This document shows positions 11,574-40,526 of a stretch of DNA of 64,000 bases, piece by piece; the first letter of the stretch is position 1; every line of letters starts with the position of its first letter. Position numbers and translations under genes: made by a program. The notes beneath the pieces were generated by a model that was given only the letters and a program-made list of their open reading frames with translations, searched no databases and was not told where the DNA came from. The stretch is taken from assembly GCA_963612725.1 (NCBI GenBank), contig CAVDWM010000005.1, forward strand, positions 16,363 to 80,362, read 5' to 3'. The DNA comes from Faecalibacterium prausnitzii (GTDB lineage: Bacteria > Bacillota > Clostridia > Oscillospirales > Acutalibacteraceae).

Positions 11574-11574
11574 C

Positions 11575-22231: not shown

Positions 22232-22243
22232 TTTTCCGAAAAG

Positions 22244-22651: not shown

Positions 22652-22721
22652 CGCATTTCCTCCTTTTGCCCGCGAACCGCGATTTTTCGGTGCGCACGCC
22701 GTAATTCTTTCAAAAGCCATG

Positions 22722-23120: not shown

Positions 23121-23122
23121 TT

Positions 23123-23698: not shown

Positions 23699-23721
23699 TC
23701 TCTCCTCTTTATGAAATATTT

Positions 23722-24726: not shown

Positions 24727-24751
24727 AGTTACCTCATTTCCGAGCGGCGCG

Positions 24752-25606
24752 TCAAAAGCTGCCGCCGCCTCCGCCGTGTGATGTTCCCGATGAGGATGTG
24801 TGAGTGCTCGAACCGCCTGAGCTGCTGCTTGACGACTTCGGCTTTTCGGTGCGCACCACATTTGTTGTAATAAACTCGTCTCTGCTGCCGGTGACAGCCA
24901 TGCTTCCGGGCACAACATAGCTGTTTGCCGCCGCCTGGAACCGCACCGTCTTGAGCTTCGCCTTCATTCTTCCGACAACGATAAGCGAGATCAGAACACC
25001 CACAATAATCGAAATGGGTATCCATATCGGCGAAAGCAGCTCTTTTGCGGCAGGTTCCTCCGGCATATTGTCAACATCGTACGGTTCGCCGTTTTCCGCC
25101 TGAACGGCAAAGGCGTCGCAGGTCTCGACATATGTCGTGAATGCAGCGGCGTAATCTCCCGCCGACAGATCGGGAACCATCTTCTCGCCGATATGCGCGA
25201 TTCCGGCATCGGTAAATATCTTTATTGCGCTCCCCGTTGTAGTTATGTGCCACTTGCGTTCGCCCATACTGATAAGGAACAAAACGCAGTTGTGATTCTC
25301 GCCCTGACCGTAGCCGTAATAGTCGCAGAAATCATCTGCATAATCCTCTATGTCTCTGTCGTCGAGAGCTTCTATCGTGACCACCGCGATATCCATATTA
25401 TGCTTCGCACTCGCCTCTTCAAGCTTCGTGAGAAGCTGCTGCTCCTCGGTATCGGTTAGGATATCGGCATCGTCTACGAGCAGCGGATACATCCTCTCCT
25501 GCGGAACGGTGCCGGAATAAGGAGGCGCGGGCACGGCAAACGACGGAACGACCGTCACAAGGCAAATCACAAGAGCAAAAAGCATTGCACAAATTTTCTT
25601 TTTCAT
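24752..25606 (-). CDS. TPM-domain protein (TLP18.3/Psb32/MOLO-1 family), membrane-anchored with Gly/Ser-rich tail
   Basis: Signal peptide, then the TPM core (YPLLVDDADILTDTEEQQLLTKLEEASAKHNMDIAVVTIEAL), a TM helix and a C-terminal SSSSSGGSSTHTSSSG tail. Confidence 0.7.
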   Translation of the reverse strand: MKKKICAMLFALVICLVTVVPSFAVPAPPYSGTVPQERMYPLLVDDADILTDTEEQQLLTKLEEASAKHNMDIAVVTIEALDDRDIEDYADDFCDYYGYGQGENHNCVLFLISMGERKWHITTTGSAIKIFTDAGIAHIGEKMVPDLSAGDYAAAFTTYVETCDAFAVQAENGEPYDVDNMPEEPAAKELLSPIWIPISIIVGVLISLIVVGRMKAKLKTVRFQAAANSYVVPGSMAVTGSRDEFITTNVVRTEKPKSSSSSSGGSSTHTSSSGTSHGGGGGSF

Positions 25607-25621
25607 CAGCCGCTTCCCTCC

Positions 25622-26719
25622 TTACATATACAGCAGAATGTGGACGAGCCACGCAAGACCGTAGGTAGCGGCGCTCAGTGCCGCCGCCAGTCCCAGTCTC
25701 CAGCGCATCGCCGCAGACTTATCCACCGGCAGGTCTCCGACGAGCTTGCCCGTCTGTCCGTTCATGGCAAAGGTATACTGCTTGCCCTGATATGTTGTGT
25801 TGAGCAGCCATACAGGGTAAAGCGCATACTTCGCAACGCCGTTTTGCAGCCTTATAAAGCTGCTGTCGGGCGTCACGGAATCGTAGCCCTTAACAGTGTC
25901 CCTGAAGAGCTCTTCGACGCTGCTCTTGACGCGGCTGTTGGCTCTGTCAACGCTCTGCTCAGCAGTCACATCGTACTTATCCGCAAGATATCCGGCGAGA
26001 TAAGCCGTTTGGAAATTCACCGCTGCGGCGAGATCGAAGGGCTCTATCGACTCCATCAGGTCGTCCGCCATCTTCTCGGAGCCGTCCACCGGTATCGCCG
26101 CAAAATCGGTGCAGCCGTCCCGATACACTCTGTAGAGGCTCGTCTCCGTATAGTTATAGTCGCTGTCGCTCCATTTTCTTATCTTCTTCGCGTCATAAAC
26201 GACCGAGGCGTCGGCATGGGCGTCAAACAGCCAGAACGGAACATATATCCCCTTTATCTCGTCGATATGGTTCTCGTCCTTGAAGGTTTTCGGCAGCAGC
26301 CGTTTCCCCGAAATATGCTTTTTGAACGCTTCCTTTGCGTCCTTTTTATTGAGCTTGAACGGAATAACGATATCCGGCTTGAGCATTCCCGAAAACTGCT
26401 CCATCATAACGACCGGATTTCCGCAGAACGGGCAAGAGGTCGCGGCGGTTGTCTCGTCGCCGACTATCTCGCCTCCGCAGGACTTGCAGACATAGGAGCG
26501 CAGTCCGCCTTTTTCGTCCTCCGTCCATTCTCCGCCCGCGGCAGTCTGCCACTGCATATCGTCCGCGCCCGCGCCGCCGTCAAGCCCCGCGTCGAGACTT
26601 GCGAGCTCCTCCATAGCATATTCGGAGTCGCAGAACGGACATTTCATTTTTTGGATATCACTGTTGAATTCAAGCGCGCCGCCGCAGGCAGGGCACTTGT
26701 ATTCCTGCAAGGTTTGCAT
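25622..26719 (-). CDS. Double-zinc-ribbon membrane protein, short paralog of 20105..21757
   Basis: CPACGG..CPFCDS and CKSCGG..CPFCGN ribbons, a PDIVIPFKL core, an MNGQTGKL motif and C-terminal TM segments. Start at MQTLQEYK (GAGAGGAG RBS). Confidence 0.55.
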   Translation of the reverse strand: MQTLQEYKCPACGGALEFNSDIQKMKCPFCDSEYAMEELASLDAGLDGGAGADDMQWQTAAGGEWTEDEKGGLRSYVCKSCGGEIVGDETTAATSCPFCGNPVVMMEQFSGMLKPDIVIPFKLNKKDAKEAFKKHISGKRLLPKTFKDENHIDEIKGIYVPFWLFDAHADASVVYDAKKIRKWSDSDYNYTETSLYRVYRDGCTDFAAIPVDGSEKMADDLMESIEPFDLAAAVNFQTAYLAGYLADKYDVTAEQSVDRANSRVKSSVEELFRDTVKGYDSVTPDSSFIRLQNGVAKYALYPVWLLNTTYQGKQYTFAMNGQTGKLVGDLPVDKSAAMRWRLGLAAALSAATYGLAWLVHILLYM

Positions 26720-26830
26720 AAAAAGCTCCTCTCTTAAAGAATCTCTCCCGTTGGGCGCCGCAGAGCGCACCTGCCGGCTGCAGATTCATCTTACTTTCGG
26801 TCGATAGCTTTACACGGCTTTTCGTATTTT

Positions 26831-27703
26831 TTATTCGTACTTTTCCGCAAGACGGAAAAAGGCCTCCGTCAGTTCTTTGCCGGGATCAATGGGTGCATAT
26901 ATCCAGCTGCCGTCGGAAAAATCAAACGAAATCTTATATGTGGTTTCGTCAAGAATGATCAGACCGTCGTCCTCCGGCTCCACATATTGCACGACCTGAC
27001 CGATAAGCTGCTGCCTTTCTACGATATCAAGTATCTCCTTCGCCGCATCCTCCTCGACACGCCTGTCTTCCACTTCCGTGCGGTATTCCCTGTCGCCGAC
27101 TACGGCATCACACGAAAAGAGCCATGCGTTTTCTTCCCTTCTGAGAGTGAAGGTATGGGAGTATGAATAGTCCATGCAGCTGCGCACTATAAACACTTCC
27201 GTGAGCGTCCTTGTCTCCGCCGCCTCATAGTGAGTGTCGGCAAGAGAATAGAGATAATCCATCGTCTTCTCGCCGAGAGCCGTGTTCTTTTCTATCCTGT
27301 TCCCGTCGGAGAAGGTCACTGCGGTGATGCGCGTCGGCGCATCGGGGATATGAAAGAGCCGTGCCATGTCAAGGTGCCGGCGCAGACGCGTTATTTCCCT
27401 CTCCTCGCTGACAAGGGAAATGAGCTTCTCAGCCTCATCAGTCGATATCGGAAAACAGCTGAACGAGGTGTAATGCTCCTTTTGCTCTCCCACGCGGCAG
27501 CTTGCGGAAAAGAACCAGCCGCGATCCCCCTTCAGCAGAGCGAAGGAATATACGGGGTCTCTTTCCGTGCCGTAATATGAGGTACTCAGCGAAACGATTT
27601 CATCGGCAGTGAATTTTTTGTTCCCGCCGCAGCCGAACATACCGGAAATCAGGGACAGAAGTGACATAACAATCACCGCCTTACGCACAATTTTATTTTT
27701 CAT
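26831..27703 (-). CDS. Lipoprotein, hypothetical (290 aa)
   Basis: Signal peptide with a lipobox-like ...SGMFGCGG. Confidence 0.5.
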   Translation of the reverse strand: MKNKIVRKAVIVMSLLSLISGMFGCGGNKKFTADEIVSLSTSYYGTERDPVYSFALLKGDRGWFFSASCRVGEQKEHYTSFSCFPISTDEAEKLISLVSEEREITRLRRHLDMARLFHIPDAPTRITAVTFSDGNRIEKNTALGEKTMDYLYSLADTHYEAAETRTLTEVFIVRSCMDYSYSHTFTLRREENAWLFSCDAVVGDREYRTEVEDRRVEEDAAKEILDIVERQQLIGQVVQYVEPEDDGLIILDETTYKISFDFSDGSWIYAPIDPGKELTEAFFRLAEKYE

Positions 27704-27790
27704 TTTCTTATTAAAGCGGTTTTCCGCACGATCGGCACAGCCTCGGCGGATTCACCCGATTCTCCACGGCGAAGCCGCAGCAAAAGTCCG

Positions 27791-28297
27791 CTACTGCTTG
27801 CCCTGATTCGTTTTCTTTGCTTTTGTCGTCTGCTTTTCGGCGGTCTTTCGTCCGCCGGACAGTGTCTTTGAAATATCCGCCACGGCTGCGCCCCCGAAAA
27901 CGAGGGACGCAACGGAAAGGATAAATCCGAAAGTGTTCGTGCTCGACAGCTTATAGTCACCCTTTGCGGTTCTGTACACCTCGACCGAAACGGTCTCGCC
28001 GCTATATGTTTTGGTGCCGAAGGTTTTCTTGCCGGTGTACGTCTTGCCGTCAACGGTGAAGCTCAGCGTCGCCTTCCACTTTTCGTCCGTTATATCGCCG
28101 TCATCGTCCTTCCTGTAGCTGTGCTCCACACGAGTGACCACGGCATCGACGACGCGCACGTCGGAGGACTTTCTGTATGCCCGTCCGCCCGTCAGGGTCG
28201 TGAAAAGCCCGTACAGTCCGAGGAGTATAAAAACCGCCGCGAAAACGATGGAAAATGTCAATGTTTTGCCTTTTTTGGTCTGGGGTGCTTTTTTCAT
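27791..28297 (-). CDS. DUF3592-like membrane protein (TM, beta-rich domain, TM), paralog A
   Basis: Topology and motifs ...TAVVT..(D/E)-rich..KxxAxLxFxVDGKTYxG...VxVEVYRTxKGxYKLS are shared with 30665..31159. Confidence 0.5.
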   Translation of the reverse strand: MKKAPQTKKGKTLTFSIVFAAVFILLGLYGLFTTLTGGRAYRKSSDVRVVDAVVTRVEHSYRKDDDGDITDEKWKATLSFTVDGKTYTGKKTFGTKTYSGETVSVEVYRTAKGDYKLSSTNTFGFILSVASLVFGGAAVADISKTLSGGRKTAEKQTTKAKKTNQGKQ

Positions 28298-28427
28298 AAG
28301 CTCTACCCTCCGTCAATCGAACCGTACCTTAAGGTCGGTCTATGTCCTCGGAGCTCCGCGCCGCAAGCCCATACGCATCTCCGTCGGTGAGGTCATGCGC
28401 TTGCTTTTGTGCGGAGCTCTGCCGTCG

Positions 28428-29333
28428 TCAGCCCTTCGGCGTTCCGCATCCCTCGCAGAAATTACCGTTGTTAACGGTTCCGCAATTCGGGCAGGTCCAC
28501 GATGCGGCAGCTGCCTGCTGAACCGGCTGCTGGGCATATCCGCCCTGCATAGGCTGTTGAGCATATCCTCCCTGCATGGGCTGCTGAGCGTAACCGCCCT
28601 GCATGGGCTGCTGAGCATAACCGCCTTGCATGGGTTGCTGAGCGTACCCGCCCTGCATGGGCTGCTGAGCGTAACCGCCCTGCATGGGCTGCTGAGCATA
28701 ACCGCCCTGCATGGGCTGACCGAAGCCGCCCGCGGACGCGCCGCGGCGCAGAAGCGCATTCGTTATCTCGTTCGCCTGACGCTCATACTCTCTGTAAAGA
28801 TCGGTGAACTGGCTCTCGGGTCTGTTGTTCTCACTGAGCTCGAACTCTATTTCGGAGAACCACGGAGAGTTGACCTGTATCTCAATCTTGAACTCATATT
28901 CGCACTCATAGCGCGGGGGCGAATAGCTCTCGCGTTTGCCGTCCTGAGTTTCGAGGAATATCTCGTCCTTATGCTCCTCTATATCGGCTCTGCAAGAGGT
29001 GACCTGCGAAAGGTCGATGAGATCCGGGTTGGCTCTGCGCCAGTCCGAGGCGCGGGTGACGATAAACTTGCCCGCGTTCATGTCGATGTAAATTTTCGTG
29101 CGGTCGCCGTAAATGAGAGAGGGATTGAAGGACGAGAGTTTTTTCTCGTTCTCCTCACGGTAGGCAAGCTGCTGCTTTATCTCCTCCACGGTCGAGCGGC
29201 GGCGGTCGCTGAAGAACGGCGAAAGCTTCGAGGCGCACTCCTTGCAGAGATTTCCGTCCTCCAGCTTGCGGTTTCCGAGAAGGCCTATCTTCTCGCCGCA
29301 AACATCACAGTATTTTTTGTCAAAAAGTCCCAT
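28428..29333 (-). CDS. DUF4428-like zinc-ribbon protein with (GGYAQQPMQ)x8 repeat and C-terminal WxCxxCG zinc ribbon
   Basis: N-terminus MGLFDKKYCDVCGEKIGLLGNRKLEDGNLCKECASKL. Eight tandem 9-aa repeats. C-terminus WTCPNCGTVNNGNFCEGCG. AAGGAGGG RBS. Confidence 0.55.
   Translation of the reverse strand: MGLFDKKYCDVCGEKIGLLGNRKLEDGNLCKECASKLSPFFSDRRRSTVEEIKQQLAYREENEKKLSSFNPSLIYGDRTKIYIDMNAGKFIVTRASDWRRANPDLIDLSQVTSCRADIEEHKDEIFLETQDGKRESYSPPRYECEYEFKIEIQVNSPWFSEIEFELSENNRPESQFTDLYREYERQANEITNALLRRGASAGGFGQPMQGGYAQQPMQGGYAQQPMQGGYAQQPMQGGYAQQPMQGGYAQQPMQGGYAQQPMQGGYAQQPVQQAAAASWTCPNCGTVNNGNFCEGCGTPKG
28525..28725. repeat. Tandem 27-bp repeat (about 7-8 copies; consensus ctgcatgggctgctgagcgtaaccgcc on the + strand), coding
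   Basis: Read directly. It encodes the GGYAQQPMQ repeats on the minus strand. Confidence 0.85.
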
Positions 29334-29347
29334 TAAAGACCCTCCTT

Positions 29348-30652
29348 TTATTTTTCGGTCGCTTTTACGACCCATTTTGCATTGTCAGTCTGTAAACCGT
29401 AGCCGCAGAACGAACAGCAGCCGTGTTCGTCCGGAATAAAATTCGCGCCGCAGGACGGGCAGTCTCTTTCAGTAAAGAGCTCGCCCTTGCCCTTTCTTCT
29501 TTGGGGATATCTCGCCCTTTGCAAAACAAGCGTCTTTGTGAATTTTTTCGTGTACGGTTTTTTGTTTTTCGGAAGATAAATCTCGCGTCCGTAGATTTGA
29601 GCGGTTATCTCGGTCGTTTTCTCCGTATTGACGACCTTTTTCAAAATGACTGTGCCGATGCTGTGATCCATCAGATCGGCATTTTTTATTTCCTTGTACA
29701 GTGCCTCGTCGATGCATGAGCGCAGGTAGTTCTCGGAATACCTGACTATTTCACCCGCCGGCTTTTCCCGTTTTGTTTTTCTGTGAATCAAAAGCGCAAC
29801 GGTAGTTGCCAGAACGAAAGCCGCCGCCCCGACCCCTGCCGCCAGAGACACCTCCGTATCCTTGATGAGCCAGAGGCACAGGAACACGCAGACAAAAAGG
29901 ACAAGCGACGACGCAAGCAGCTGCAAGGCTCTTCGCTGATTCGTCCCGAGCTCCTCGTATATCTCGAAAGCTTCGGTCTGCCAGTCGTAAAAATCGCTGT
30001 GAATCATTCCGCCGCAGTACGGGCAGACCGCCTGCTGACTGTCAAGCCCGATCTGTGCGCCGCAGGACGGGCAGCTTATCTCCGACCGGTCGTCATAGTA
30101 GCTTTTCTTTTTCTCCGTCCTGTCGGAGGTGCGAATATGCCTTGACTCAAGGAGCCTGACATAGGCATTTTTGCGATACAGCTCGTATACGGGCTTGCCG
30201 TCCCGCTTGGACACGAGGCGCTCCAGTACACTGCACCGCAAAACAGCCTCGCGCCATTCCCGACCGTCGTCGCTCCACCTTTTGAAGTCGTTCTTCGGCA
30301 GCGGAACAACATCCGCCAATCGGATATCGCGGAAAAGCCCTCTTTGCGCAAGCAGGTCAAGCTGCCGCTCGGTATTTTTGCGGAACACCATATCCATTCT
30401 CGCAGGGAGCAGCTCCTTATCCGCCTTGCTCAGCGGACGGAGAGCTTTCTCAAGGGCTTCTCTGACATCGCCGTGAAGACCCATTCCCTGCAGCGGTGTC
30501 TCGCGCTCGGCAAGCAGCCTTTTCATTTTCGCTTTTTTCATATTCTGCGGCAGGAGACCGGAAATATCGATATCGATAATCTTTTCGCCGACAAAATATG
30601 CGCAGAGCACAGTGACCGCCGCCGCTATAAGCAACGCATCCGTTAAGCTCAT
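29348..30652 (-). CDS. Zinc-ribbon/TM protein (434 aa) with two CPSCG-type ribbon pairs
   Basis: CPSCGAQIG...CPYCGG and CPSCGANF...CSFCGY, an N-terminal TM and two central TM helices. Confidence 0.5.
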   Translation of the reverse strand: MSLTDALLIAAAVTVLCAYFVGEKIIDIDISGLLPQNMKKAKMKRLLAERETPLQGMGLHGDVREALEKALRPLSKADKELLPARMDMVFRKNTERQLDLLAQRGLFRDIRLADVVPLPKNDFKRWSDDGREWREAVLRCSVLERLVSKRDGKPVYELYRKNAYVRLLESRHIRTSDRTEKKKSYYDDRSEISCPSCGAQIGLDSQQAVCPYCGGMIHSDFYDWQTEAFEIYEELGTNQRRALQLLASSLVLFVCVFLCLWLIKDTEVSLAAGVGAAAFVLATTVALLIHRKTKREKPAGEIVRYSENYLRSCIDEALYKEIKNADLMDHSIGTVILKKVVNTEKTTEITAQIYGREIYLPKNKKPYTKKFTKTLVLQRARYPQRRKGKGELFTERDCPSCGANFIPDEHGCCSFCGYGLQTDNAKWVVKATEK

Positions 30653-30664
30653 CGGAATACCCCT

Positions 30665-31159
30665 TTATTCTTTCGCCTCGGCCTTTTTGCCCTTTGCCGC
30701 CTTTTTATCCGAATTATCGGTAAATATGGAGTACGCCATTGCCACGGTAAGGAAGCCGCCGACGGGAATCGCTATGCAGTAAACGAGAAAGACGACGGGG
30801 TTTCTGTCCGGACTGAGCTTATATGTGCCCTTCGATGTCCGATAAACCTCGACCGTGACCTTATCTCCCTTGCTTATTTTTCGGTAGTAGGTCTCGGTCC
30901 CCTTATAGGTCTTCCCGTCAACGTCAAAGGCGAGCTTTGCCCTGTACTTGTAATCGCCGTAATCCTCATCGTCGCCGATATCCTTATAATCCGTGACGAC
31001 CGCCGTGACCTTGCGGATATCCTCGGAGTTCTTGTACTCCCGACTTGCGACCCTGCTGAAAACAACGCCGCAGATACCCGCCGCAAGCACGGCGACGGCA
31101 AAAAGCAATGCCGCAACGGAATATAATTTGTTCTTTATTTTACTCGTATCCTTGCTCAT
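30665..31159 (-). CDS. DUF3592-like membrane protein, paralog B
   Basis: Start at MSKDTSK (GGAGGAG RBS). Conserved ...VTAVVTDYKDIGDDEDYGDYKYRAKLAFDVDGKTYKGTETYYRKISKGDKVTVEVYRTSKGTYKLS. Confidence 0.5.
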   Translation of the reverse strand: MSKDTSKIKNKLYSVAALLFAVAVLAAGICGVVFSRVASREYKNSEDIRKVTAVVTDYKDIGDDEDYGDYKYRAKLAFDVDGKTYKGTETYYRKISKGDKVTVEVYRTSKGTYKLSPDRNPVVFLVYCIAIPVGGFLTVAMAYSIFTDNSDKKAAKGKKAEAKE

Positions 31160-31292
31160 AACGGCTCCTCCGATAAGGCTCAGGGATGAAGAGGCGGGCT
31201 CTGTCATATACGGCTGCATTTAAAAGCCGTATCGGTATTGTGCCAAAACAAAATTGACTGTACCGAAAACTGTTTTTATATTTTTCGCGAGA

Positions 31293-32708
31293 TCACTGCT
31301 TGTCGTTCTCGTCAAACAGGTCGCCGCATTCGGGGCAGAATTTCGGAGGATTCGCCGGATCTGCAGGCTCCCAGCCGCACTTGTCGCAGCGATAGAGCGG
31401 TGCGCCCGCAGGCTTTTGAGCACCGCAGTTCTGGCAGAACTTGCCCTTGTTCACCGTGCCGCACGAGCATCTCCAGCCCTCCGCGTCAGCGGGCTTGGGT
31501 GCGCCGCACTCGGGGCAGAACTTGCCGGTCGCAGTCGCGCCGCAGGAGCATTTCCAGCCGTCCGCCGGCTGGGGCTCCGGCTTCTTTGCGCCGCAGTTCG
31601 GGCAGAATTTTCCGTTCACGGTCGCGCCGCACGAGCATTTCCAGCCGTCCGCCGCAGGTGCCGCAGGTGCGCTTTGCTGCGCCTGAGCCTGCTGTTGCTG
31701 CTGACCCATGGCAAAGAGGTTCTGCGCGTTCATTCCGCCGCCGGCATTCATAGCCATGCCCATGCCCAAAAAGCCTGTCATTGCGCCAGCCTGATTGCCT
31801 GCCGCAGTCTTCATCGCGTCAGCCTGAGCGCCGACGAGGGTCGCCGCCGCCATGGTGGGATCGCGCATGATAGCGGAACGCTGCGCCTGCTTGATGAGCT
31901 CCGCATCCTCATCGGGAAGCGTGACGGAGCCGAGGGCTATGGTGATGACCTTGATTCCGCGCAGCTCGCCCCACTTTGCGGAGAGGGCGGTATTCATTGC
32001 CGCTTCAAGCTCGGTGTTGTGAGCCACTATCTGATTGGGGCGAAGCTCGAGATCCGAGAGCTGGGCAAATGCGGGCTGAAGTGCGCTGATGAACTCCGTC
32101 TTGAGCTGGTTGTCTATTTCCTCACGGGTATAATCCTGCTCGACATTGCCGCAGACATTGGTGTAGAAGAGCATGGGGTCGTCTATCTTGTAGGAATAGA
32201 CGCCGGAGCAGCGAACCGCGACATCGATATCCAGCCCTATCTTTGAATCGACAACGCGGAAGGGGATGGGATTCGGAGTGCCGAATTTGTTATCCATTAT
32301 CTCCTTGGTGTTGAAATAATAGACGCGCTGATCCTTTCCCGTATCTCCGCCGTAAGCGAAACGCTTGCCGATGGTCTTGAAGGTTTGCTTTATGCTGTCG
32401 CCGAGAGAGCCCGAGAAAATCGAGGGCTCGGTGGAAGCGTCGTATGTAAACTCTCCGGGCTCCGCACAGAACTCAACGACCTTGCCCTGCTCGACTATCA
32501 TCATGCACTGACCGTCCGCAACGGCTATTCCCGAGCCGTTTGAGATGATATTGTCGCTGCCCTTCGTGTTCGACGATCTGTCGCCGACACGCTTTTGTCC
32601 CTTTGTAACAAGCAGCTCCTTCGGCATTGCCTCACAATAGAAAAATTCTTTCCACTGATCGGCAAGAACGCCGCCGACCGCTCCGATACCGGCTTTAATA
32701 AGTCCCAT
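31293..32708 (-). CDS. SPFH/band-7 domain protein (YdjI-like 'virion core protein-like') with three C-terminal zinc-ribbon repeats
   Basis: N-terminus MGLIKAGIGAVGGVLADQWKEFFYCEA, typical of the YdjI-like SPFH family. Met/Gly/Gln-rich linker. 3x (DGWKCSCGATVNGKFCPNCGA) plus a fourth CDKCG..CPECG ribbon. Confidence 0.6.
   Translation of the reverse strand: MGLIKAGIGAVGGVLADQWKEFFYCEAMPKELLVTKGQKRVGDRSSNTKGSDNIISNGSGIAVADGQCMMIVEQGKVVEFCAEPGEFTYDASTEPSIFSGSLGDSIKQTFKTIGKRFAYGGDTGKDQRVYYFNTKEIMDNKFGTPNPIPFRVVDSKIGLDIDVAVRCSGVYSYKIDDPMLFYTNVCGNVEQDYTREEIDNQLKTEFISALQPAFAQLSDLELRPNQIVAHNTELEAAMNTALSAKWGELRGIKVITIALGSVTLPDEDAELIKQAQRSAIMRDPTMAAATLVGAQADAMKTAAGNQAGAMTGFLGMGMAMNAGGGMNAQNLFAMGQQQQQAQAQQSAPAAPAADGWKCSCGATVNGKFCPNCGAKKPEPQPADGWKCSCGATATGKFCPECGAPKPADAEGWRCSCGTVNKGKFCQNCGAQKPAGAPLYRCDKCGWEPADPANPPKFCPECGDLFDENDKQ
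31418..31650. repeat. Three tandem copies of a repeat of about 78 bp, coding (zinc-ribbon modules)
   Basis: Read directly: repeated ...gcaccgcagttctggcagaacttgcc...gagcatctccagcc... units. Confidence 0.7.
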
Positions 32709-32773
32709 AGATAAAAACTCCTTTGCAAATAATATTTTAAAAATTACAAGGGTCGCGCCCTTTTTTCGACAAT

Positions 32774-33319
32774 TTATCCTTTCATCTGCTCCGTCTGAGC
32801 CGTCTGACCCGCAAGAACGAAATCGGTCTTTCCGTCCCGACCGTCATAGGTGAGCGTCCGGCTTGCCTTCATATCGCCTTTTTGAGCCTCTATCACGGCG
32901 GGCGGAACAGTCTCGGCGAGATAGCCGTCAAACTCATAGACCTCGCCCTTTTTGACCTTCACCGTGAACAGCACTCCGTCCGTCACAAGCTCCCCGCTCT
33001 GCTCGTCATATCTGAGCTTAACGAGCGAAACGGTCACTCCGTCCGTATTCGATACAAATCGTATGCGGTCGTCAGAGCGTGTGCCTATGCCCGTTGTGAA
33101 CACACCCACGGGCTCCGAAAGCGACATAAAGGAGTCCGATTTCGGGTCGGTATACAGTGAAAGCTCAAACGCATCTCCCGCGCCGTCGCGCTCCGTCATC
33201 CGCTCCTCGGTCGTCTGCCCGCTCTGCGTTTTCGGGTCGAAGGTTCGCCCGCAGCCGGAGAGAACAATAAGCGCGGCGAGAGCTGCGACAACCGCTCCCA
33301 CGAAAGCTGTCTTCTTCAT
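32774..33319 (-). CDS. Lipoprotein, hypothetical
   Basis: MKKTAFVGAVVAALAALIVLSGCG signal/lipobox. Confidence 0.5.
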   Translation of the reverse strand: MKKTAFVGAVVAALAALIVLSGCGRTFDPKTQSGQTTEERMTERDGAGDAFELSLYTDPKSDSFMSLSEPVGVFTTGIGTRSDDRIRFVSNTDGVTVSLVKLRYDEQSGELVTDGVLFTVKVKKGEVYEFDGYLAETVPPAVIEAQKGDMKASRTLTYDGRDGKTDFVLAGQTAQTEQMKG

Positions 33320-33336
33320 TTCATCTACCCCCGTAA

Positions 33337-33813
33337 TTATGGCAGCTGCGTCCATGTGTCGGAAACTGCATCGTACTCATAGACGACCCTGTCAAGATAG
33401 TCAAAGCACAGATATATCTCCCTGACGAACTGACCGTCACGGCTCGTACCCAGGGCATAAACATTGCAGTACACCCCATCCTGAAGTGTCGTCTCGCCCG
33501 TGTCCATGACCGACATGCCCATGTCAAGATATCTGCCCGCTCCCGCACTGCACTCACGCAGCACCTGCGGAACCATTTCTATGGGTATGTCTGTCCTCTG
33601 ATTTGACGGAGCCTCTCCGCCCGCCGAAAATGTCTCAGACGCTTTCTCCGTCTCCCTCTGCGTCTCCCGCTCGGTCGTCTCGGGGTGCTCCTGCGTCGAA
33701 GAAACCCGAGTCTCTCCGTCCTTCACGCAGCCGCACAGCAGCAGAGTCGGCAGCAGCACGGCAAGCAGCACCGCCGCAGCCCTTCTCGTCACTCTCCTCA
33801 CGGCAAAAATCAT
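33337..33813 (-). CDS. Lipoprotein, hypothetical
   Basis: Signal peptide ...AAAVLLAVLLPTLLLCGC lipobox, then a TE-rich linker. Confidence 0.5.
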   Translation of the reverse strand: MIFAVRRVTRRAAAVLLAVLLPTLLLCGCVKDGETRVSSTQEHPETTERETQRETEKASETFSAGGEAPSNQRTDIPIEMVPQVLRECSAGAGRYLDMGMSVMDTGETTLQDGVYCNVYALGTSRDGQFVREIYLCFDYLDRVVYEYDAVSDTWTQLP

Positions 33814-34108
33814 CCTCCCTCTCACCGTTGACTTTCTTTATAAAATCCGATGTTGATGCGGAATAAGGATTGACGTTCCTTTTCGGTTCGTCCGATGTCC
33901 CCGAGCAGCGGCTCACCCAGCTGATGATAACCGTTCTGAGCAAAACGGCAGCCAGCCATACCGACAGGAGCAGCACGAACCACAGGACGGATATTTTAAA
34001 AACGAAGTGAGCCGCGAGTGCCGCCCACGCCGGAATCGACCAGCCGATGTCCAGCGCCAGATTCATCAGAAAGCAGAGCAAAAAACCCTTGCGGTCGCGC
34101 CTTCTCAT
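33635..34108 (-). CDS. Possible small 2-TM membrane protein (its 3' part overlaps the next lipoprotein gene in another frame)
   Basis: The ORF contains convincing TM helices (FLLCFLMNLALDIGWSIPAWAALAAHFVFKISVLWFVLLLSVWLAAVLL). The C-terminal 60 codons overlap 33337..33813, so its true end is uncertain. Confidence 0.25.
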   Translation of the reverse strand: MRRRDRKGFLLCFLMNLALDIGWSIPAWAALAAHFVFKISVLWFVLLLSVWLAAVLLRTVIISWVSRCSGTSDEPKRNVNPYSASTSDFIKKVNGEREDDFCREESDEKGCGGAACRAAADSAAVRLREGRRDSGFFDAGAPRDDRAGDAEGDGESV

Positions 34109-34266
34109 CGCACTCCCCCCTTTTACGGCATCCGTCTGATTATATGGTATCAAAAAATCAAAAGAAAAGCACTACCCGCCGTGAGTAGTTTTTCAGCAGA
34201 CAGGTGTTGCGTCTGATAGGATAAAGCATAACGGCGGCTGACGAAAAAATCGAAAGCCGCCGAAAA

Positions 34267-35760
34267 TTATTCAACTATAATGAGCCTGCGATCCGAGGGG
34301 ACGGTAACAAGCTCGATATCTCCCAAATTTTCCTCCAACACATCAAAGCAGGAGGTAGCCACGGTTTTGATTTTTCCGTTAAGCTCTATCTCCGCCCTGT
34401 CAACACCGAAGAACTCCTTCATATTCATCACATCATATTCCTGAAGTCCGACCGTTATGACCTGCCCCCGCTCTACCTCCCTGCCGTCGAGTTCGACCGA
34501 TATCAGCTCATGCCGCGAGCGGGAATAGACGACTCTGAAGCCGTGTGAAAGCTGATAAAACTCCGTTTTTCCGTTGAGTGCCTCGTCGCGCAGGATGCGC
34601 ATGAGCATCGCCCTGAGCTGCGCCCCCGTCACATATATGCGCTCTATCTCGTTTTTATACGGGAACATCTCGATAAGATCCTGGAGCGTGACAATAGGTC
34701 CGAGCTGCTCGTTTCTTATGCTGCCGGAGCCGAGGAGCATGATATCAAGCCCGAGCGCGTCCTTGAACACATCGCTGAATATGCGGCCCAGCTGCGTCTC
34801 ACGGTTGCGCTCGGGATGAAAATATTCCTCACGAAACCGCGTGACGACGCGGCTGTATTTCATATCCGTCTGGTTCTTGTATTTCTCAATGACGCTCTCA
34901 AGCTGGAGATCCCGCTCACAATTCTCCCCGTCTATCGGAACGAGCTGCCAGGTGTAGCTGTCGATACAGTTGTTGTCGGTATCGACAACAATGTCAAATC
35001 TGCCTATCTGCGCCGTGCCGTTGGCTGCCTGAACTATGGGTATTCCCTCGACCACCGCCGGCTCGCTGAGCAGAGTGTGGCTGTGTCCGCCGATTATAAT
35101 ATCGACTCCCCAGCGCGGGTCGAGCGCCCGCGCCAGCTCCTTGTCCGCGTCAAAGCCGATATGAGTCAGCAGAACCGTAAAATCAATGTCCACCGACTGA
35201 TAGCTGTTGCATATCTTGCCGACCTCGTTTGCCGCCTCATGAACATCGAGAAAAGAGCCGATAAGCTTGTCCTGCCTCGTCTGAGAGAGCACCTGCTCCG
35301 TTATCAGCCCGATGAACAGCACCTTCATGCCGTCCACCTCCAATATTTCATGGGACCTGAAAAGACGCGAGCCGTTATTGGTCAGATATATGTTGGCGTT
35401 GATTATGGGGAATTTGGCGCACCGCTCGATAAAAAGCAGGTGAGCTATACCGTAATCTATCTCGTGATTGCCGAGGGTAACAACATCGGGCGCAAGAATG
35501 TTCATAATCTCGATAGTGGACAGACCCTTATATTCGCTGTCGATAAGCGAGCCGCGGAACATATCGCCCGAAATCGAATATATGACATTTTTCTCCTCGC
35601 GGCGAACCTTGTTCACATAGCCCGAGAGCATGGAGACTCCGCCTATCAGCCTGTCGTCGGCTTCCTTGGCCATAAAATCGCCGTGCATATCATTTGAATG
35701 AAGAAGAGTAAGTTTTTTCAGATGTTTCATTTTGACACACTCGCAAAAAAGGATTTTCAT
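34267..35760 (-). CDS. Bifunctional metallophosphatase/5'-nucleotidase family protein (no signal peptide)
   Basis: N-terminal LHSNDMHGD and GNHE motifs, plus a C-terminal 5'-nucleotidase substrate-binding domain. Confidence 0.75.
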   Translation of the reverse strand: MKILFCECVKMKHLKKLTLLHSNDMHGDFMAKEADDRLIGGVSMLSGYVNKVRREEKNVIYSISGDMFRGSLIDSEYKGLSTIEIMNILAPDVVTLGNHEIDYGIAHLLFIERCAKFPIINANIYLTNNGSRLFRSHEILEVDGMKVLFIGLITEQVLSQTRQDKLIGSFLDVHEAANEVGKICNSYQSVDIDFTVLLTHIGFDADKELARALDPRWGVDIIIGGHSHTLLSEPAVVEGIPIVQAANGTAQIGRFDIVVDTDNNCIDSYTWQLVPIDGENCERDLQLESVIEKYKNQTDMKYSRVVTRFREEYFHPERNRETQLGRIFSDVFKDALGLDIMLLGSGSIRNEQLGPIVTLQDLIEMFPYKNEIERIYVTGAQLRAMLMRILRDEALNGKTEFYQLSHGFRVVYSRSRHELISVELDGREVERGQVITVGLQEYDVMNMKEFFGVDRAEIELNGKIKTVATSCFDVLEENLGDIELVTVPSDRRLIIVE

Positions 35761-35866
35761 ACTCCGTGCCTGCTCCGACCGGTCAACTCGGCTCGTCTGT
35801 GTCGGATACCACTTTAATTATAGCAATATCCCTGCGTATGTGCCCTACCCCGAACGGGTAGTATTG

Positions 35867-36484
35867 TCAGTAGAGAGGATTTATCCATCCGTTGGATATC
35901 ATATAAAAGGCGAGGTCAACCGACTTTGCAAAGCCGGTTTTTGCGAGCATATTCTTCTTATGATATTTCACCGTGTCCTCGCTGATATACAGCTCGCCCG
36001 CTATCTCCTTATTTGTCATGTGCTTGCACATCAGGCGCAATATCTCCATCTCGCGCTCGGTCAGCGGCGCCTCGCCGCGGGGCATGGGAATGGTCTTCGG
36101 CTCCGGGAAGCATCCGCCGCCCGCCATGACCTCCCGTGCGGTCTGCTCAAATTCCGAGAGACTGCGGCTTTTATATATGAACGCATGTGCTCCCGCCTCC
36201 CTTGCCCGCGGGGCATAGGATATCTCGTCGAAGGCGGTCATAACTATGACCTTTATGTCGGGGAAGGCATCGCGCACCTCCTTTGTCGCCCGCAGTCCGG
36301 ACGCGCCGCCCTCGGTGCACACATCCATAAAAACTATATCCGGCTCAAGCTCGCCGCACATTTTGACCGCGTGATCCGCGCTCGAAATCCCTCCGACAAC
36401 GCAGAAGTCCCCGCTCGCGTCAAACAGACGCTCAAGGGATTCGCGCATTGATTCGTGATCGTCAACAACCAGCACTCTGGTCAC
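35867..36484 (-). CDS. Response regulator, NarL/LuxR family (REC + HTH_LuxR)
   Basis: VLVVDDH...D54-like (FMDV) ...KVIVMTA, with C-terminal LTEREMEILRLMCKHMTNKEIAGELYISEDTVKYH. Confidence 0.85.
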   Translation of the reverse strand: MTRVLVVDDHESMRESLERLFDASGDFCVVGGISSADHAVKMCGELEPDIVFMDVCTEGGASGLRATKEVRDAFPDIKVIVMTAFDEISYAPRAREAGAHAFIYKSRSLSEFEQTAREVMAGGGCFPEPKTIPMPRGEAPLTEREMEILRLMCKHMTNKEIAGELYISEDTVKYHKKNMLAKTGFAKSVDLAFYMISNGWINPLY

Positions 36485-37917
36485 AGAGCTTCACCTCCTG
36501 GAATATAAACCGAAAGTATAAAACGCGGCGTTGCTTCGACAGTCACCCTGCCGTCAAAAAAACCGACCTTTTTGCGTATCGTTCCGAGTCCGCCGCCCTC
36601 GGTGAAATCGGGCTTCGGCGGAATACCGTTGTCGGTTATCCGCATCGAAAAATCTCCGCCGCGCCGTTCAAGACATATGTAAATTTCCGACGCAAGCCCG
36701 TGGCGCACGGAATTGGTCACAGCCTCGGTTATTATATCCATACCGAGCCACGCATGGTTTTCGTTTGACGGCAGTCTGCCCTCAACGCAGAGCTTCACGC
36801 CTATCTCCTTCATCAGTGCGCGCAGAGTATCCAGCCTGTCCTCCGCCGTGACTACGGGTTCGCGTTCGCTGAGCTCGTCGGGGAGGTCGGAGGCGAATTT
36901 GCGTATAAGCTCCTCGTCCGGCTCCTTACCCTCACGCAGGCTGCGGAAAAGCAGCGCGAGTCGCTGACCCAACACATCATGGAAGCGGCTGCGTATTTTC
37001 AGCATCTCCTCCTCGCGGCAGAGATAGCGGATATCCGATATCATCCTCTGGAGCTCAAGTCCCCTGCTCTGCAGCATCCTGCGCTGTTCGTTGAGCTCGT
37101 TCGTCAGCCTCCACTGCGCCGTAATATCCGCGGCGGAGACCTGAGTGAAGTGCTTTGAGTCAACGTCAATTCCGCACTTTGCAAAAAGCCACACCCTGCC
37201 GTCCGGAAGAACAAAGACCGGTTTTTCGCCGATATACGCCTCCGCGCTTCCGTTGAGGACATCGCCCCGCACGAGACGCTCGTAAAACTCCTTACCGTCG
37301 CGGCAGACCTCGCCGCAAAGCGCCTTCATAAGCCGCTGCATTCTGTTGTTGACGAGCAGGATATTGCCGTCCCGTTCGCAGAAAAGAATGCCCGAATGAA
37401 GCTCATCGACCGCAAGCTTCACCGAATCGCGGGAGAGCTCGTTTCTGATATCTCTTCGGCAAACCGCCATAAGATGCACGGCGCGGACGATAAGCAGCAC
37501 CTCCGCAGCGGCAAAGAGCACCGCGACCGCCGCATACGGCAAACGCTCGACAAACGGCAGCGTCACCGCCGAAACCGCCGCGCACAGCAAGGGGTCGAAC
37601 ACGCGGCAAAATATTATAACGGCGGCGCACGACGCCGCAACCGCCGCAAAAGCAATGCATCTTAAAGCAACATACTCGCTGCCGGCGGGCAAAAGCTCGG
37701 CGGCGTTGAGCTGAACACGCGAAATAAGCATGAGCATAACTATGCTCTGAGCGGTGACGGCAATCTGAGAAATATATGACACGGTGTGCCGCTTATCTTT
37801 TTTCGTGCTGCGGATGACCATATAGACGAGCGCACCGGTCTGAACGCCGACGCAGGCTATCGACAGCATACAGACAAGCACCCTGACTTTTTCGGGAAGA
37901 AAATAGAAGGATGTCAT
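36481..37917 (-). CDS. Sensor histidine kinase (multi-TM, HisKA_3 + HATPase_c)
   Basis: H-box FHDVLGQRLALL (HisKA_3), 6 N-terminal TM segments, and C-terminal ATPase motifs (ITEAVTNSVRHG...DNGIPP...GGGLG). Its stop overlaps the RR start. Confidence 0.8.
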   Translation of the reverse strand: MTSFYFLPEKVRVLVCMLSIACVGVQTGALVYMVIRSTKKDKRHTVSYISQIAVTAQSIVMLMLISRVQLNAAELLPAGSEYVALRCIAFAAVAASCAAVIIFCRVFDPLLCAAVSAVTLPFVERLPYAAVAVLFAAAEVLLIVRAVHLMAVCRRDIRNELSRDSVKLAVDELHSGILFCERDGNILLVNNRMQRLMKALCGEVCRDGKEFYERLVRGDVLNGSAEAYIGEKPVFVLPDGRVWLFAKCGIDVDSKHFTQVSAADITAQWRLTNELNEQRRMLQSRGLELQRMISDIRYLCREEEMLKIRSRFHDVLGQRLALLFRSLREGKEPDEELIRKFASDLPDELSEREPVVTAEDRLDTLRALMKEIGVKLCVEGRLPSNENHAWLGMDIITEAVTNSVRHGLASEIYICLERRGGDFSMRITDNGIPPKPDFTEGGGLGTIRKKVGFFDGRVTVEATPRFILSVYIPGGEAL

Positions 37918-40322
37918 AACTTATCCCCTCCCGGCACGCGCAGGCTCAGTCCCGCAGTTTCATCAAGGTCCTTGACGGATACCGACCCGCCGATGCCCCT
38001 TATCGCTTCGCTTAGCTCGTCGCTCACGCTCCTGCCGTCAAAGGAGGACGGGAGCAGCCGCATCTCTATCGCCCCGTCGGCTTCGACAAGCTGTTCGAGA
38101 ACGGTGCCGTCCTCCCCTGTGCACGCGTCTATCACAAAATAGAAAAAGTCGTACATAACGCTGCCGCATCTGGGAGACACCTCGCCCTTTGCGGTGCACA
38201 CCGTGCTCACTCTGATATCGGCATATGACGCAAATTCGGACAGCTCGTCTATGTACACGGCAAGCTCCTCTATCGGCATACCGCCGCCCTCCTGTTCCTT
38301 GAAGAACAGGCTGCACCTGCGTTTGATATAGCACATCAGCAGAGTTATCAGCGCGATATCCCTCTGCTTGTTTTTCGAGCGTTCGAGCCCGTCTATCATA
38401 TCGTTCATGCGGTCAAGGTGCCGCTCCATTTCCGCGTTGAGCAGCCCCATAAGACGGACATTTTCCTCGGCTGCGGCGAGCCTGTACCGGCTCTCGCGCT
38501 CCGCGACAAGGAGCTTGTTTGCCGATGTCAGCCTGACGACATTCTCCCGTATCTCCTCCTGCATTCTTAGAATTTCGGAGATGTCCTCCTGCCACACGAC
38601 CATGCCCCCCGGTATACCGTCGGCATAAAGCAGGGTGTCCGTGTGCTGGAGCAGAGGATGGTCTATATCGTCTCTGAGCTTCTCCCAGTCGTCACGCGGT
38701 ATCGGAACCGCGCCGGCAGAGCTGAGCCTCACCTCGCCGTATGAGTCAATTATCTGCATTCCGAGCGGCGAATTTGAGAAAATCATATCATACTTCTTGT
38801 TGACCGGAACAAGCCCCGTCCTCATCGCAAGCTCCGCAAACAGCAGCACGAAAACGCAGGAGACTGTCGTTATGTCGCTGTCCCGCGCAACGGGCACCTC
38901 TGCGGCATATGCCACACAATAGGCGAGGAGCAGCAGCTCGCTGAGTATCGGCAGGATAAGCCTTGTGCGGTTGAAGCCGCGCATGGCTTTTCTGATAAGT
39001 ATGGCGGTAGACATGAGCACCTGCGACGCCGCAAATGCAAAAATCAAATAATAGCCGATGTTGTAGCTGTAGCTTCCGTCCCAGTTATTCAGGTCTCCGA
39101 GCCTGAACACCATGCCGTGAAGGTCGTTTGTAAACACCATAAGCAGCAGCGCGACATATACGGCAAAGCAGCCGCATACGAAAGATTCGCGGCGCTTCGT
39201 GCGTTCGGGGAAATCGATGAGCATGGACAGCGGCAGCATCAGAAGCGGCAAGCCCATCATAAAGATATAGTAGGCATACCACAGGTATCGCCCCAAAACA
39301 GGGTTACTCTCCGTCTGATACTTCAGCACGCACACGAGCATCCACGCTATCACCATGCCGCTGAACGCACGAACCATCGCCCTGATATCGCTGCGGCGAA
39401 CGCGGCGAAGGGCACAGCCCATCCATATGACCGCGCCCATTATGACCGCAGCCGCCATAATCTTGTGTTCAAACGATTCCGAGGCGGAATAGAGTCGCGT
39501 TCTGAAAACCCGGCGTTTAAAAATACTGATAAAATTCCTTGTCTGCCTTGCAAACTGTTCGGCGTCCCCGACCCTTTCGGCGCGAGCATAGTCGGACAAG
39601 GACGGATATCCCTCCGCTTCGGTCTTGTCTGCACGCAGACCCGCTGCGGCGACGAGCTCCGCCGTGTCGGGCGAAAAATTCATCCCGCGTTCGGACACGA
39701 CGCCGACTCCGTAGAGCAGCGTTCCCTCGGCAGGGACGATGATTTCTATATTTTTTCCCTCGCTCTTCATACGGACGGCCTGATAATCCCAGCAGATATT
39801 GACGGGGGAATCCGTCCCGAGGGCAAGCCTTCCGTCCCTTTCAAGGGAAGCGAGTAAATCGACCGCCGTCTTTGACATATAGGATTTTTCGAGCCCGTAA
39901 GACACGGCGGCAAAAAGCATCCTCTCGTTCTCGGGCGAAAAGCCCACCGGGCAGGATATATTTTCAAGGTCGCGCCAGCCGTTTATTTCGCCGTCAAACC
40001 GAGAGCGGTCAACGGCAATGACTGCGGCGACGGCAAAATGCTCATACCAGTTTTCGGCAAGCCCCGCATCGACGGCGGCGCGAGCCTGAACATCGAATGC
40101 GGCAAACGCCTTCTTTCCGTCTCCGTCAAAGGAGAGCTGCGAATCGAGACCGTTGCCGTCGTCAAAGGTGCAATCCTGCGCGATATTACGAAGCAGCTGC
40201 GTATATATCGGGTTCACGCTTCGGGAAAAGACGACCCTTTCCCCCTGCTCGGCGCTGCATGAGCAAAAGCAAAAAACGGCGGCAAAAAGCAAGAGCACAG
40301 CGGCTGTTATCCTGCCCTTGTG
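37914..40322 (-). CDS. Atypical sensor protein: lipoprotein-like SBP-type extracellular domain + about 7 TM + coiled-coil and a degenerate kinase-like C-terminus
   Basis: Signal/lipobox (LLLFAAVFCFCSCS), an extracellular domain of about 270 aa, a 7-TM block, then a coiled coil (LRMQEEIRENVVRLTSANKLL...). No canonical HisKA H-box was found. Its stop overlaps the HK start (ATGA). Confidence 0.5.
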   Translation of the reverse strand, partial: HKGRITAAVLLLFAAVFCFCSCSAEQGERVVFSRSVNPIYTQLLRNIAQDCTFDDGNGLDSQLSFDGDGKKAFAAFDVQARAAVDAGLAENWYEHFAVAAVIAVDRSRFDGEINGWRDLENISCPVGFSPENERMLFAAVSYGLEKSYMSKTAVDLLASLERDGRLALGTDSPVNICWDYQAVRMKSEGKNIEIIVPAEGTLLYGVGVVSERGMNFSPDTAELVAAAGLRADKTEAEGYPSLSDYARAERVGDAEQFARQTRNFISIFKRRVFRTRLYSASESFEHKIMAAAVIMGAVIWMGCALRRVRRSDIRAMVRAFSGMVIAWMLVCVLKYQTESNPVLGRYLWYAYYIFMMGLPLLMLPLSMLIDFPERTKRRESFVCGCFAVYVALLLMVFTNDLHGMVFRLGDLNNWDGSYSYNIGYYLIFAFAASQVLMSTAILIRKAMRGFNRTRLILPILSELLLLAYCVAYAAEVPVARDSDITTVSCVFVLLFAELAMRTGLVPVNKKYDMIFSNSPLGMQIIDSYGEVRLSSAGAVPIPRDDWEKLRDDIDHPLLQHTDTLLYADGIPGGMVVWQEDISEILRMQEEIRENVVRLTSANKLLVAERESRYRLAAAEENVRLMGLLNAEMERHLDRMNDMIDGLERSKNKQRDIALITLLMCYIKRRCSLFFKEQEGGGMPIEELAVYIDELSEFASYADIRVSTVCTAKGEVSPRCGSVMYDFFYFVIDACTGEDGTVLEQLVEADGAIEMRLLPSSFDGRSVSDELSEAIRGIGGSVSVKDLDETAGLSLRVPGGDKL

Positions 40323-40526
40323 CATCTGCCTCACCTCCGTTTCCCCGCCGAAGCGCAAAATCACGACATCATATGCTTATTCTATTATATTACACCCTAC
40401 GGCTTATTTCAACAGCCTTCTGTTTTGCAAAATTCACATTAAATTACAAAAGGGACCGGGCATTCAGATGCAGAATTGATCTGCGCTGAATGCCTCAGCC
40501 CCTGAGAGCAATGCTCCGTAATATAA

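Follow-up and report, generated by a model that had tools for sequence, protein, structure and literature searches.

The 64,000-nucleotide (nt) stretch analyzed here, referred to below as the window, comes from Faecalibacterium prausnitzii (assembly GCA_963612725.1, contig CAVDWM010000005.1, positions 16,363 to 80,362) and carries on its minus strand three overlapping open reading frames (ORFs), S1, HK2, and RR3, all of them at the coordinates first assigned. S1 (37914-40322, 802 amino acids [aa]) encodes a pseudo-histidine-kinase and predicted co-sensor in which a solute-binding protein (SBP) domain is joined to seven transmembrane (TM) helices, as read from an AlphaFold2 (AF2) model and its homologues; HK2 (36481-37917, 478 aa) encodes a histidine kinase of the DesK/NarX (HisKA_3) class; and RR3 (35867-36484, 205 aa) encodes a NarL/LuxR-type response regulator. 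S1 begins with an ATG at 40322, 6 nt after the Shine-Dalgarno sequence GGAGGTGA. As the sequence-only reading had described, stop and start codons overlap along the cassette: the S1 stop codon shares a 4-nt ATGA with the start of HK2 (junction TTATGACA), and the HK2 stop codon shares a 4-nt GTGA with the GTG start of RR3 (junction CTGTGACC). The ORFs are real rather than chance frames, because full-length homologues score E = 0. Upstream of S1, the carB stop codon is followed by a hairpin and then by a near-consensus predicted operon promoter (TTGAAA-17-TATAAT, 40384-40412, minus strand, 11 of 12 consensus matches), suggesting that S1-HK2-RR3 is likely its own transcription unit rather than part of carAB.

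The S1 model, built on 44 homologues (mean pLDDT 84), shows in order a signal helix, a two-lobed α/β domain (residues 29-272), seven TM helices (283-501), a PAS-like domain (511-580), long helices (582-678), and a second α/β domain (684-797). A Pfam scan of the protein returned HisKA_7TM above its cut-off, SBP_bac_6 weakly, and nothing for HisKA or HATPase_c. The N-terminal signal carries a lipobox-like FCSC; in most homologues, a hydrophobic leader is followed by a canonical L[ST]GC. This places the binding domain outside the cell, and the seven TM helices put the kinase-like part inside. Residues 29-272 (39507-40238, minus strand) form a type II SBP domain of the PotD/AfuA/HptA class, with Foldseek matches to 5t1p, PotD, PotF, AfuA, VcA0625, and HptA (6lkg) at TMt 0.5-0.59; for 5t1p, PotD/PotF, AfuA, and HptA, the E values run from 6e-10 (5t1p) to 1e-5. 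The S1 family profile also relates the domain to the 5t1p SBP by sequence (E = 3.3e-8), and SBP_bac_6 is matched by 27 of the 44 family members; the window protein itself scores 16.7 bits, below the cut-off of 24.6, and a single-sequence Protein Data Bank search with it gave noise only, so that the family profile was needed for a match. Fold, sequence relation, and extracytoplasmic location thus agree on type II SBP membership, which upholds the lipoprotein-like, SBP-type extracellular domain of the sequence-only reading. A literature search found no paper on the ligand of the top structural match, 5T1P.

The seven helices of the membrane domain (residues 283-501; 38820-39476, minus strand) match HisKA_7TM (PF16927) over residues 292-499 at 41.1 bits, above the gathering cut-off of 28.6 (E = 2.4e-10), and the same model is found in 38 of the 44 family members, in keeping with the earlier estimate of about seven TM segments. 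Residues W348, Y352, N399, H402, Y468, and Y472 are invariant. Two of them, N399 and H402, belong to a TNDLH motif at the outer end of TM4 (residues 396-406, approximately 39105-39137 in the window), which is followed by a conserved extracellular β-hairpin; this region may touch the SBP domain or serve as a second site for a ligand or metal. Relatives of 520-590 aa that start at the 7-TM domain and have no SBP part were also encountered (P0173, P0185, P0199, P0214, P0237, P0243, P0248, and P0249), and these may be metagenome gene fragments or a genuine SBP-less variant.

The cytoplasmic half of S1 retains the fold of a histidine kinase. A small PAS-like domain (residues 511-580; 38583-38792, minus strand), recognized from AF2 secondary structure and from Foldseek alignments to YF1, WalK, VicK, and ThkA, leads into a coiled coil and a DHp-like helical hairpin (residues 582-678; 38289-38579, minus strand; helices 582-646 and 652-678), followed by a degenerate, Bergerat-type domain resembling the catalytic and ATP-binding (CA) domain of kinases (residues 684-797; 37932-38273, minus strand). 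Foldseek matches of the C-terminal part include WalK, YF1, VicK, ThkA, HK853, ZraS, and the kinase-like ChpT, and profile alignment (hhalign) of S1 residues 637-801 with HK2 residues 318-477 (E = 1.4e-4) indicates distant homology between the two proteins, so that the AF2 model, the structural matches, and the alignment to the HK2 core all point to a PAS-DHp-CA arrangement.

The catalytic residues of that fold are gone from S1. No conserved His occurs in residues 575-802 across the 44 sequences, the best columns reaching 15 of 44 at residue 588 and 10 of 44 at residue 635. The H-box region cannot be aligned with that of HK2; its equivalent in S1 falls at approximately residues 629-635, where no His is conserved. 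Column counts over the same 44 sequences likewise revealed no conserved Asn, DxG, or GxG in the CA-like domain: in the hhalign comparison, the HK2 N-box E..TN stands opposite y..i.W in S1, the G1/G2 segment stands opposite a gap, and the lid segment is missing. What the S1 module keeps instead is N602, L605, a LLLCYIKRRCNLFF helix, E693, and a YDFFY helix. The conserved C664 within LLLCYIKRRCNLFF was considered as the former phospho-His position and rejected, since hhalign and the AF2 model make that helix the second DHp helix. A profile search detected HisKA or HATPase_c/HATPase_c_2 in none of the 44 S1 members at E ≤ 0.01, a result that does not fit an ordinary pair of histidine kinases and that agrees with the earlier failure to find a canonical H-box. 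The coiled coil and ATPase-like C terminus of the sequence-only reading stand as to fold, but the N, G1, and G2 boxes expected of an ATPase are absent. Loss of the phospho-His, of these boxes, and of the ATP lid predicts that S1 cannot autophosphorylate. Failing the defining tests of a histidine kinase, S1 is therefore not to be filed as one; NCBI-derived names of family members are "histidine kinase N-terminal 7TM domain-containing protein" or "hypothetical protein."

HK2, by comparison with DesK (family profile E = 1.9e-18), is an intact kinase. Its H313 (codon 36979-36981) aligns with the DesK phospho-His, and the H-box (R.HD.LGQR), N-box (E.vTNAVRHG, with TNAVRHG as its core), and the DNG and GGG motifs of G1 and G2 are all conserved. 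HATPase_c is matched by 18 of 19 HK2 members; the window protein lies slightly below the cut-off (25.1 versus 26.4 bits), and the Pfam HisKA_3 model itself gave no match. The AF2 model (pLDDT 80) places TM helices at residues 9-36, 42-70, 80-104, 110-125, and 128-~150, with loops of fewer than 10 residues, followed by a PAS domain, a long helix bearing H313, and a CA domain; hydropathy agrees with this helix layout. HK2 therefore has no extracytoplasmic sensor and belongs with the intramembrane-sensing kinases, as previously proposed; the class and the lack of a large extracellular domain stand, but the number of TM segments is revised from six to five.

RR3 matches Response_reg (4.5e-21) and GerE (7.6e-17) in Pfam, which confirms it as a LuxR-type regulator. 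The acidic pocket and phospho-Asp of its receiver can be read from the sequence as D8, D9, and D54, and its closest solved relatives are VraR (4.8e-27), DesR, and NarL, placing it among the VraR/LiaR/NarL-like members of the NarL/LuxR family.

A genome scan found S1 relatives in at least 163 species, from which 79 loci were fetched, 66 of them with enough sequence to judge the presence of HK2 and RR3. In 65 of these 66 loci, which span many families of Clostridia, HK2 and RR3 directly follow S1. The loci closest to the window are those of one metagenome-assembled genome (MAG) with 96-99% protein identity and of Oscillospiraceae UBA11809 with 68-94%. The S1 family comprises 1,756 cluster representatives at 50% identity (E ≤ 1e-30), nearly all of about 800 aa, and ranges over Oscillospiraceae, Lachnospiraceae, Christensenellales, and other anaerobes, including the cultured gut genera Intestinimonas, Flavonifractor, Lawsonibacter, and Anaerotignum. 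An Evtepia MAG (L066) carries two S1-HK2-RR3 cassettes in tandem (3221-7578 and 8001-12332).

Compared with the window proteins, homologues have a median identity of 35% for S1, 32% for HK2, and 69% for RR3, and the helix-turn-helix (HTH) of RR3 is almost invariant across the family. The near-invariance of RR3, including its HTH, alongside sensors at 32-35% identity predicted a conserved operator, and a shared motif was therefore sought in the intergenic regions of the fetched loci. A 17-bp palindrome, CTACCCGC-N-GCGGGTAG, was found to recur upstream of several neighboring gene families. With at most one mismatch, it occurs at 121 sites in 58 of the 79 loci (1.14 Mb), almost all of them intergenic, whereas shuffled sequence gave 0-7; in most genomes, copies flank the cassette. 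A TATAAT-like hexamer (at least 5 of 6 positions) lies exactly 22 nt after the GGGTAG of the palindrome in 81 of 96 distinct oriented sites. This fixed spacing centers the site near -43, which is the geometry of an activator replacing the -35 element. When metagenome contigs were scanned blindly for operator-N22-TATAAT, 18 were recovered, and 14 of these have RR3 just upstream and/or, at or near the site, the same neighbor families, namely the pseudo-receiver c3, the SPFH/zinc-ribbon family c7, the DUF6935 family c17, the lipoproteins c14 and c27, and c8. The palindrome is thus a predicted operator, and RR3 is the protein that would bind it.

In approximately 30 Oscillospiraceae-type loci, a further module with the same operator at its head lies upstream of S1 (for instance, L027:4297-7900). 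Its genes encode c6, a lipoprotein of the SBP_bac_8 family; c5, a membrane protein whose extracytoplasmic part is large and whose C terminus carries a GerE HTH; and c4, a 121-aa protein rich in Cys.

The gene most commonly found behind the operator in most other genomes is c3, which encodes a stand-alone pseudo-receiver of about 125 aa (for example, L027:12345-12785). This protein is paralogous to the receiver domain of RR3 (hhalign 96.8%), but it has Glu in place of the phospho-Asp and no longer has the acidic pair. Present in 64 of the 79 loci, c3 is almost always located beside the cassette behind an operator-N22-TATAAT promoter, suggesting that it is probably a fourth, feedback component of the system. 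Neither tblastn nor hidden Markov model searches of six-frame translations found c3 in the window, and the closest relatives of the window also have none.

Two predicted operators lie in the window. Operator 1, CTACCCGTTCGGGGTAG in its minus-strand reading (35845-35861), matches the pattern exactly, lies 5 nt beyond the stop codon of RR3, has a TATAAT (35817-35822) exactly 22 nt downstream, and faces a 5'-nucleotidase/UshA-like gene (NT5; 34267-35760, minus strand; Pfam Metallophos and 5_nucleotid_C, no signal peptide), a predicted direct target of RR3. The same operator-promoter stands directly upstream of the nucleotidase gene in L001 and L002, suggesting that in this lineage the nucleotidase is probably an output of the system rather than a clue to its input. 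Operator 2, CTACTCACGGCGGGTAG in its minus-strand reading (34172-34188), has one mismatch, lies between the nucleotidase gene and the next operon, is shared by L002, and has a TACCAT 22 nt and a TATAAT 27 nt downstream. The operon that follows (31293-34108, minus strand), a predicted target delimited from ORFs and Pfam matches, comprises a small membrane protein, two lipoprotein-like genes, and an SPFH (Band_7_1) gene with zinc ribbons; the corresponding SPFH/zinc-ribbon family c7 lies directly behind the operator in L008, L012, L042, L053, L065, L084, and L086. Beyond operators 1 and 2, no further copies or half-sites were found near the downstream zinc-ribbon, TPM, and DUF6935 genes of the window, and one two-mismatch match inside the nucleotidase gene fits chance. 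Within the operon, the ORF of the small membrane protein (33635-34108) overlaps that of the next lipoprotein (33337-33825) by about 180 nt in another frame, and its C-terminal tail looks out of frame; an error is probable in one of the two ORF calls or in the start assigned to the second.

Taken together, these observations make it fairly probable that S1 acts as a ligand-binding pseudo-kinase co-sensor controlling the sensor-less HK2, and that RR3 activates the operator promoters. In such a pathway, a small extracytoplasmic ligand would close the SBP domain of S1, and the change would run through the 7-TM bundle and the coiled coil. S1 would touch HK2 through membrane helices and/or the DHp-like hairpin, shifting it between its kinase and phosphatase states. 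HK2 would phosphorylate RR3 on D54, and a dimer of phosphorylated RR3 on the 17-bp palindrome near -43 would activate transcription. Of the two such promoters in the window, one would drive the 5'-nucleotidase gene, and the other the operon ending in the SPFH/zinc-ribbon gene. The scheme thus supposes that S1 contacts HK2 and controls it, that RR3 is the protein binding the operator, and that RR3 activates rather than represses. The sequence-only reading had likewise cast S1 as an accessory pseudo-kinase or co-sensor feeding HK2; the architecture, translational coupling, and linkage are those expected of an obligate unit, but contact itself stays a prediction.

Several points weigh against this scheme. 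Contact between S1 and HK2 is predicted from genetic linkage, namely adjacency in 65 of 66 loci and overlapping stop and start codons, and hhalign detected no similarity between the 7-TM domain of S1 and the membrane domain of HK2. The remaining locus, L069, has an orphan S1 (7959-10328, 789 aa) that is followed by a lipoprotein gene and has neither HK2 nor RR3 within 8 kb downstream. The window S1 does possess a coiled-coil His, H635, which occurs in 10 of 44 homologues and has no H-D context. No operator is located upstream of S1 in the window, so that autoregulation is not expected here. In addition, part of the palindrome could form a hairpin, operator 2 was flagged as terminator-like, and the second LuxR-type protein, c5, found near the cassette in approximately 30 loci, could in principle bind the palindrome.

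Of the alternatives, the one that survives best, unlikely as it is, holds that S1 signals by a route other than HK2, either by docking RR3 or c3 in a sequestering or phosphatase-like manner, or because its 7-TM domain has a transport or enzymatic role and its kinase-like tail is only regulatory. Proteins of the ChpT type, with degenerate CA domains, bind receivers (Foldseek match 4fpp), and a pseudo-receiver paralogue of RR3 is available in most loci. Also in favor of this alternative are N399 and H402, the invariant polar pair at the outer end of TM4, weak matches of S1 to MAB_1171c (a putative transporter) and TgpA_N, and the orphan S1 of L069. However, these transporter-like matches are far below threshold, the window lineage has kept S1 without c3, and a kinase with no sensor domain of its own stands beside S1 in all but one of the judged loci.

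It is quite improbable that the palindrome belongs to a regulator other than RR3, such as the membrane-bound c5, or that it is a terminator or repeat. The GerE HTH of c5 and its position beside the cassette, the terminator-like score of operator 2, and the location of many sites just after the RR3 stop codon would fit such an origin. Nevertheless, it is the sequence itself, beyond its pairing potential, that is invariant across distant genera, the spacing to the -10 hexamer is fixed at 22 nt in 81 of 96 sites, and there are sites that head operons far from any upstream gene end. Sites also occur in many loci whose fetched sequence contains no c5 (including the window, L001, L002, L012, L014, L017, and L077-L079), and RR3 is the only regulator present in all loci.

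The proposal of the sequence-only reading that the unit senses nucleosides or nucleotides, in connection with carAB and the 5'-nucleotidase, is very improbable. In its favor, the operator-promoter immediately precedes the nucleotidase gene in the window, L001, and L002, and the nearest SBP folds include phosphorylated-metabolite binders (AfuA, VcA0625, HptA, and P5PA). However, carB adjoins S1 only in the same-species locus L002, and an end signal after carB precedes the separate S1 promoter. The nucleotidase is adjacent in only 5 of the 79 loci (L001, L002, L009, L038, and, on the opposite strand, L020), and target status says nothing about the input signal. Recurrent neighbors in the other loci are pseudo-receiver, SPFH/zinc-ribbon, DUF4428, DUF6935, AIM24, and lipoprotein genes, and the conserved targets are the pseudo-receiver, SPFH/zinc-ribbon, DUF6935, and lipoprotein genes. 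Conserved synteny with carAB and the nucleotidase was therefore rejected in favor of a lineage-specific arrangement.

Finally, it is scarcely credible that S1 is a divergent but working kinase that phosphorylates RR3 in parallel with HK2, since the retained PAS-DHp-CA fold with its structural matches to solved kinases, the distant homology of its C-terminal half to HK2, and the His at position 635 of the window protein are offset by the lack of a conserved His in residues 575-802, by the loss of the N-box Asn, G1, G2, and lid segment, and by profile matches to HisKA/HATPase_c in 0 of 44 S1 members versus 18 of 19 HK2 homologues.

For control of HK2 by S1, the closest functional precedent, by architecture, is RocA of Streptococcus pyogenes, a pseudokinase with six TM helices and a degenerate CA domain that acts by binding the kinase CovS and thereby alters regulator phosphorylation (PMC7028121). 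S1 and RocA are both multi-pass membrane proteins with a DHp/CA module from which catalytic residues have been lost, a likeness to the RocA-CovS/CovR system that is architectural in nature. RocA, in contrast, has six TM helices and no extracytoplasmic ligand domain, keeps a dispensable His, and is encoded away from covRS, whereas S1 combines an SBP domain with HisKA_7TM, lacks any conserved His, and is coupled in translation to the kinase presumed to be its partner.

For ligand input, the closest precedents, again by analogy, are SBP-dependent kinases such as HptA-HptS-HptR (HptASR) of Staphylococcus aureus, of which the HptS-HptA complex has been solved (6LKG; PMC8050422). In this system, as in LuxP-LuxQ, TorT-TorS, and XylFII-LytS, an SBP gives ligand recognition to a two-component kinase, and HptA (6LKG) is itself among the structural neighbors of the S1 SBP domain. 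In all four, however, the SBP is a separate protein, soluble or lipid anchored, that docks on the kinase's own extracytoplasmic sensor, whereas in this cassette a 7-TM pseudo-kinase carries the SBP as a fused domain and HK2 has no extracytoplasmic domain. The cassette differs from both precedents in that an SBP is fused to a pseudo-kinase via HisKA_7TM and hard-wired to its partner in one operon.

Like the LiaFSR and VraTSR three-component systems of cell-envelope stress, the cassette brings together in a single operon an intramembrane-sensing kinase of the HisKA_3 type, a regulator of the NarL family, and an accessory membrane protein. Further likenesses are the VraR-type relatives of RR3 and the predicted SPFH, zinc-ribbon, and TPM targets, which recall the PspA-linked ydj operon of Bacillus subtilis. 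However, S1 has neither the LiaI-LiaF-TM nor the Toastrack domain, no PspA/LiaH homologue was detected near the cassette, the operator is a different one, and the presence of an SBP domain implies that a defined ligand, not a general disturbance of the membrane, is sensed. With no LiaF/VraT-type accessory protein and no PspA/LiaH-type target detected among the window neighbors scanned, the cassette falls outside the LiaFSR/VraTSR group.

In RetS-GacS and DivL-CckA, a kinase-fold protein also controls a partner kinase without the need for its own phosphotransfer; these systems are proteobacterial, use other sensor domains, and have neither an SBP/7-TM fusion nor an obligate operon with the partner. 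Likewise, BvgS/EvgS-type kinases fused to SBP or Venus-flytrap domains, as well as 7TMR-DISM receptors, link an N-terminal extracytoplasmic ligand domain through membrane helices to a cytoplasmic signaling module, but they are catalytically active alone, whereas S1 is not and is paired with a separate kinase. A literature search, which did not cover all journals, found no description of an S1-HK2-RR3 cassette, and a full-text search found HisKA_7TM, the sole Pfam domain of S1, in just two papers, each of them on archaeal kinases.

If S1, as a ligand-binding pseudo-kinase, does gate a sensor-less kinase, the cassette would exemplify genetically hard-wired control of a kinase by a dead paralogue, one equipped with a defined ligand pocket outside the cell. 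With the operator predicted and its promoter geometry fixed, the regulon can be tested directly in any carrier genome, and the targets connect the system with SPFH/zinc-ribbon/TPM proteins, which are related to B. subtilis YdjGHI and form a membrane-maintenance set that is still poorly understood. More tentatively, it is possible that proteins of the S1 type form a large receptor class resembling class-C G-protein-coupled receptors, in which a Venus-flytrap/SBP domain sits on seven helices. The dead kinase module would then be an obligate, allosteric subunit within a heteromeric receptor-kinase complex that also contains an intramembrane kinase. Combined with pseudo-receiver feedback and the operator-N22-TATAAT promoter, this would constitute a ligand-gated pathway for SPFH/zinc-ribbon/TPM membrane-maintenance proteins in gut and other anaerobic Clostridia.

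Downstream of the cassette, a co-directional run of membrane-associated genes extends over 19359-32708 on the minus strand. According to Pfam, it encodes the Band_7_1 protein with C-terminal zinc ribbons (YdjI-like; 31293-32708), which is the last gene of the predicted target operon, a zinc-ribbon protein (29348-30652), a DUF4428 protein (28428-29375), a protein with two zinc ribbons and a C-terminal TM segment (25622-26770), a TPM-domain protein (24752-25606), a DUF6935 protein (23123-23698), and a DUF1451-type zinc-ribbon protein (20105-21886). Pfam identified no PspA/LiaH homologue among the window neighbors scanned. In B. subtilis, YdjI, YdjG, and YdjH are partners of PspA in membrane stress (PMC11237479; PMC8581546), and the Band_7_1, two-zinc-ribbon/TM, and TPM proteins of the window fit the published descriptions of YdjI, YdjG, and YdjH, respectively.

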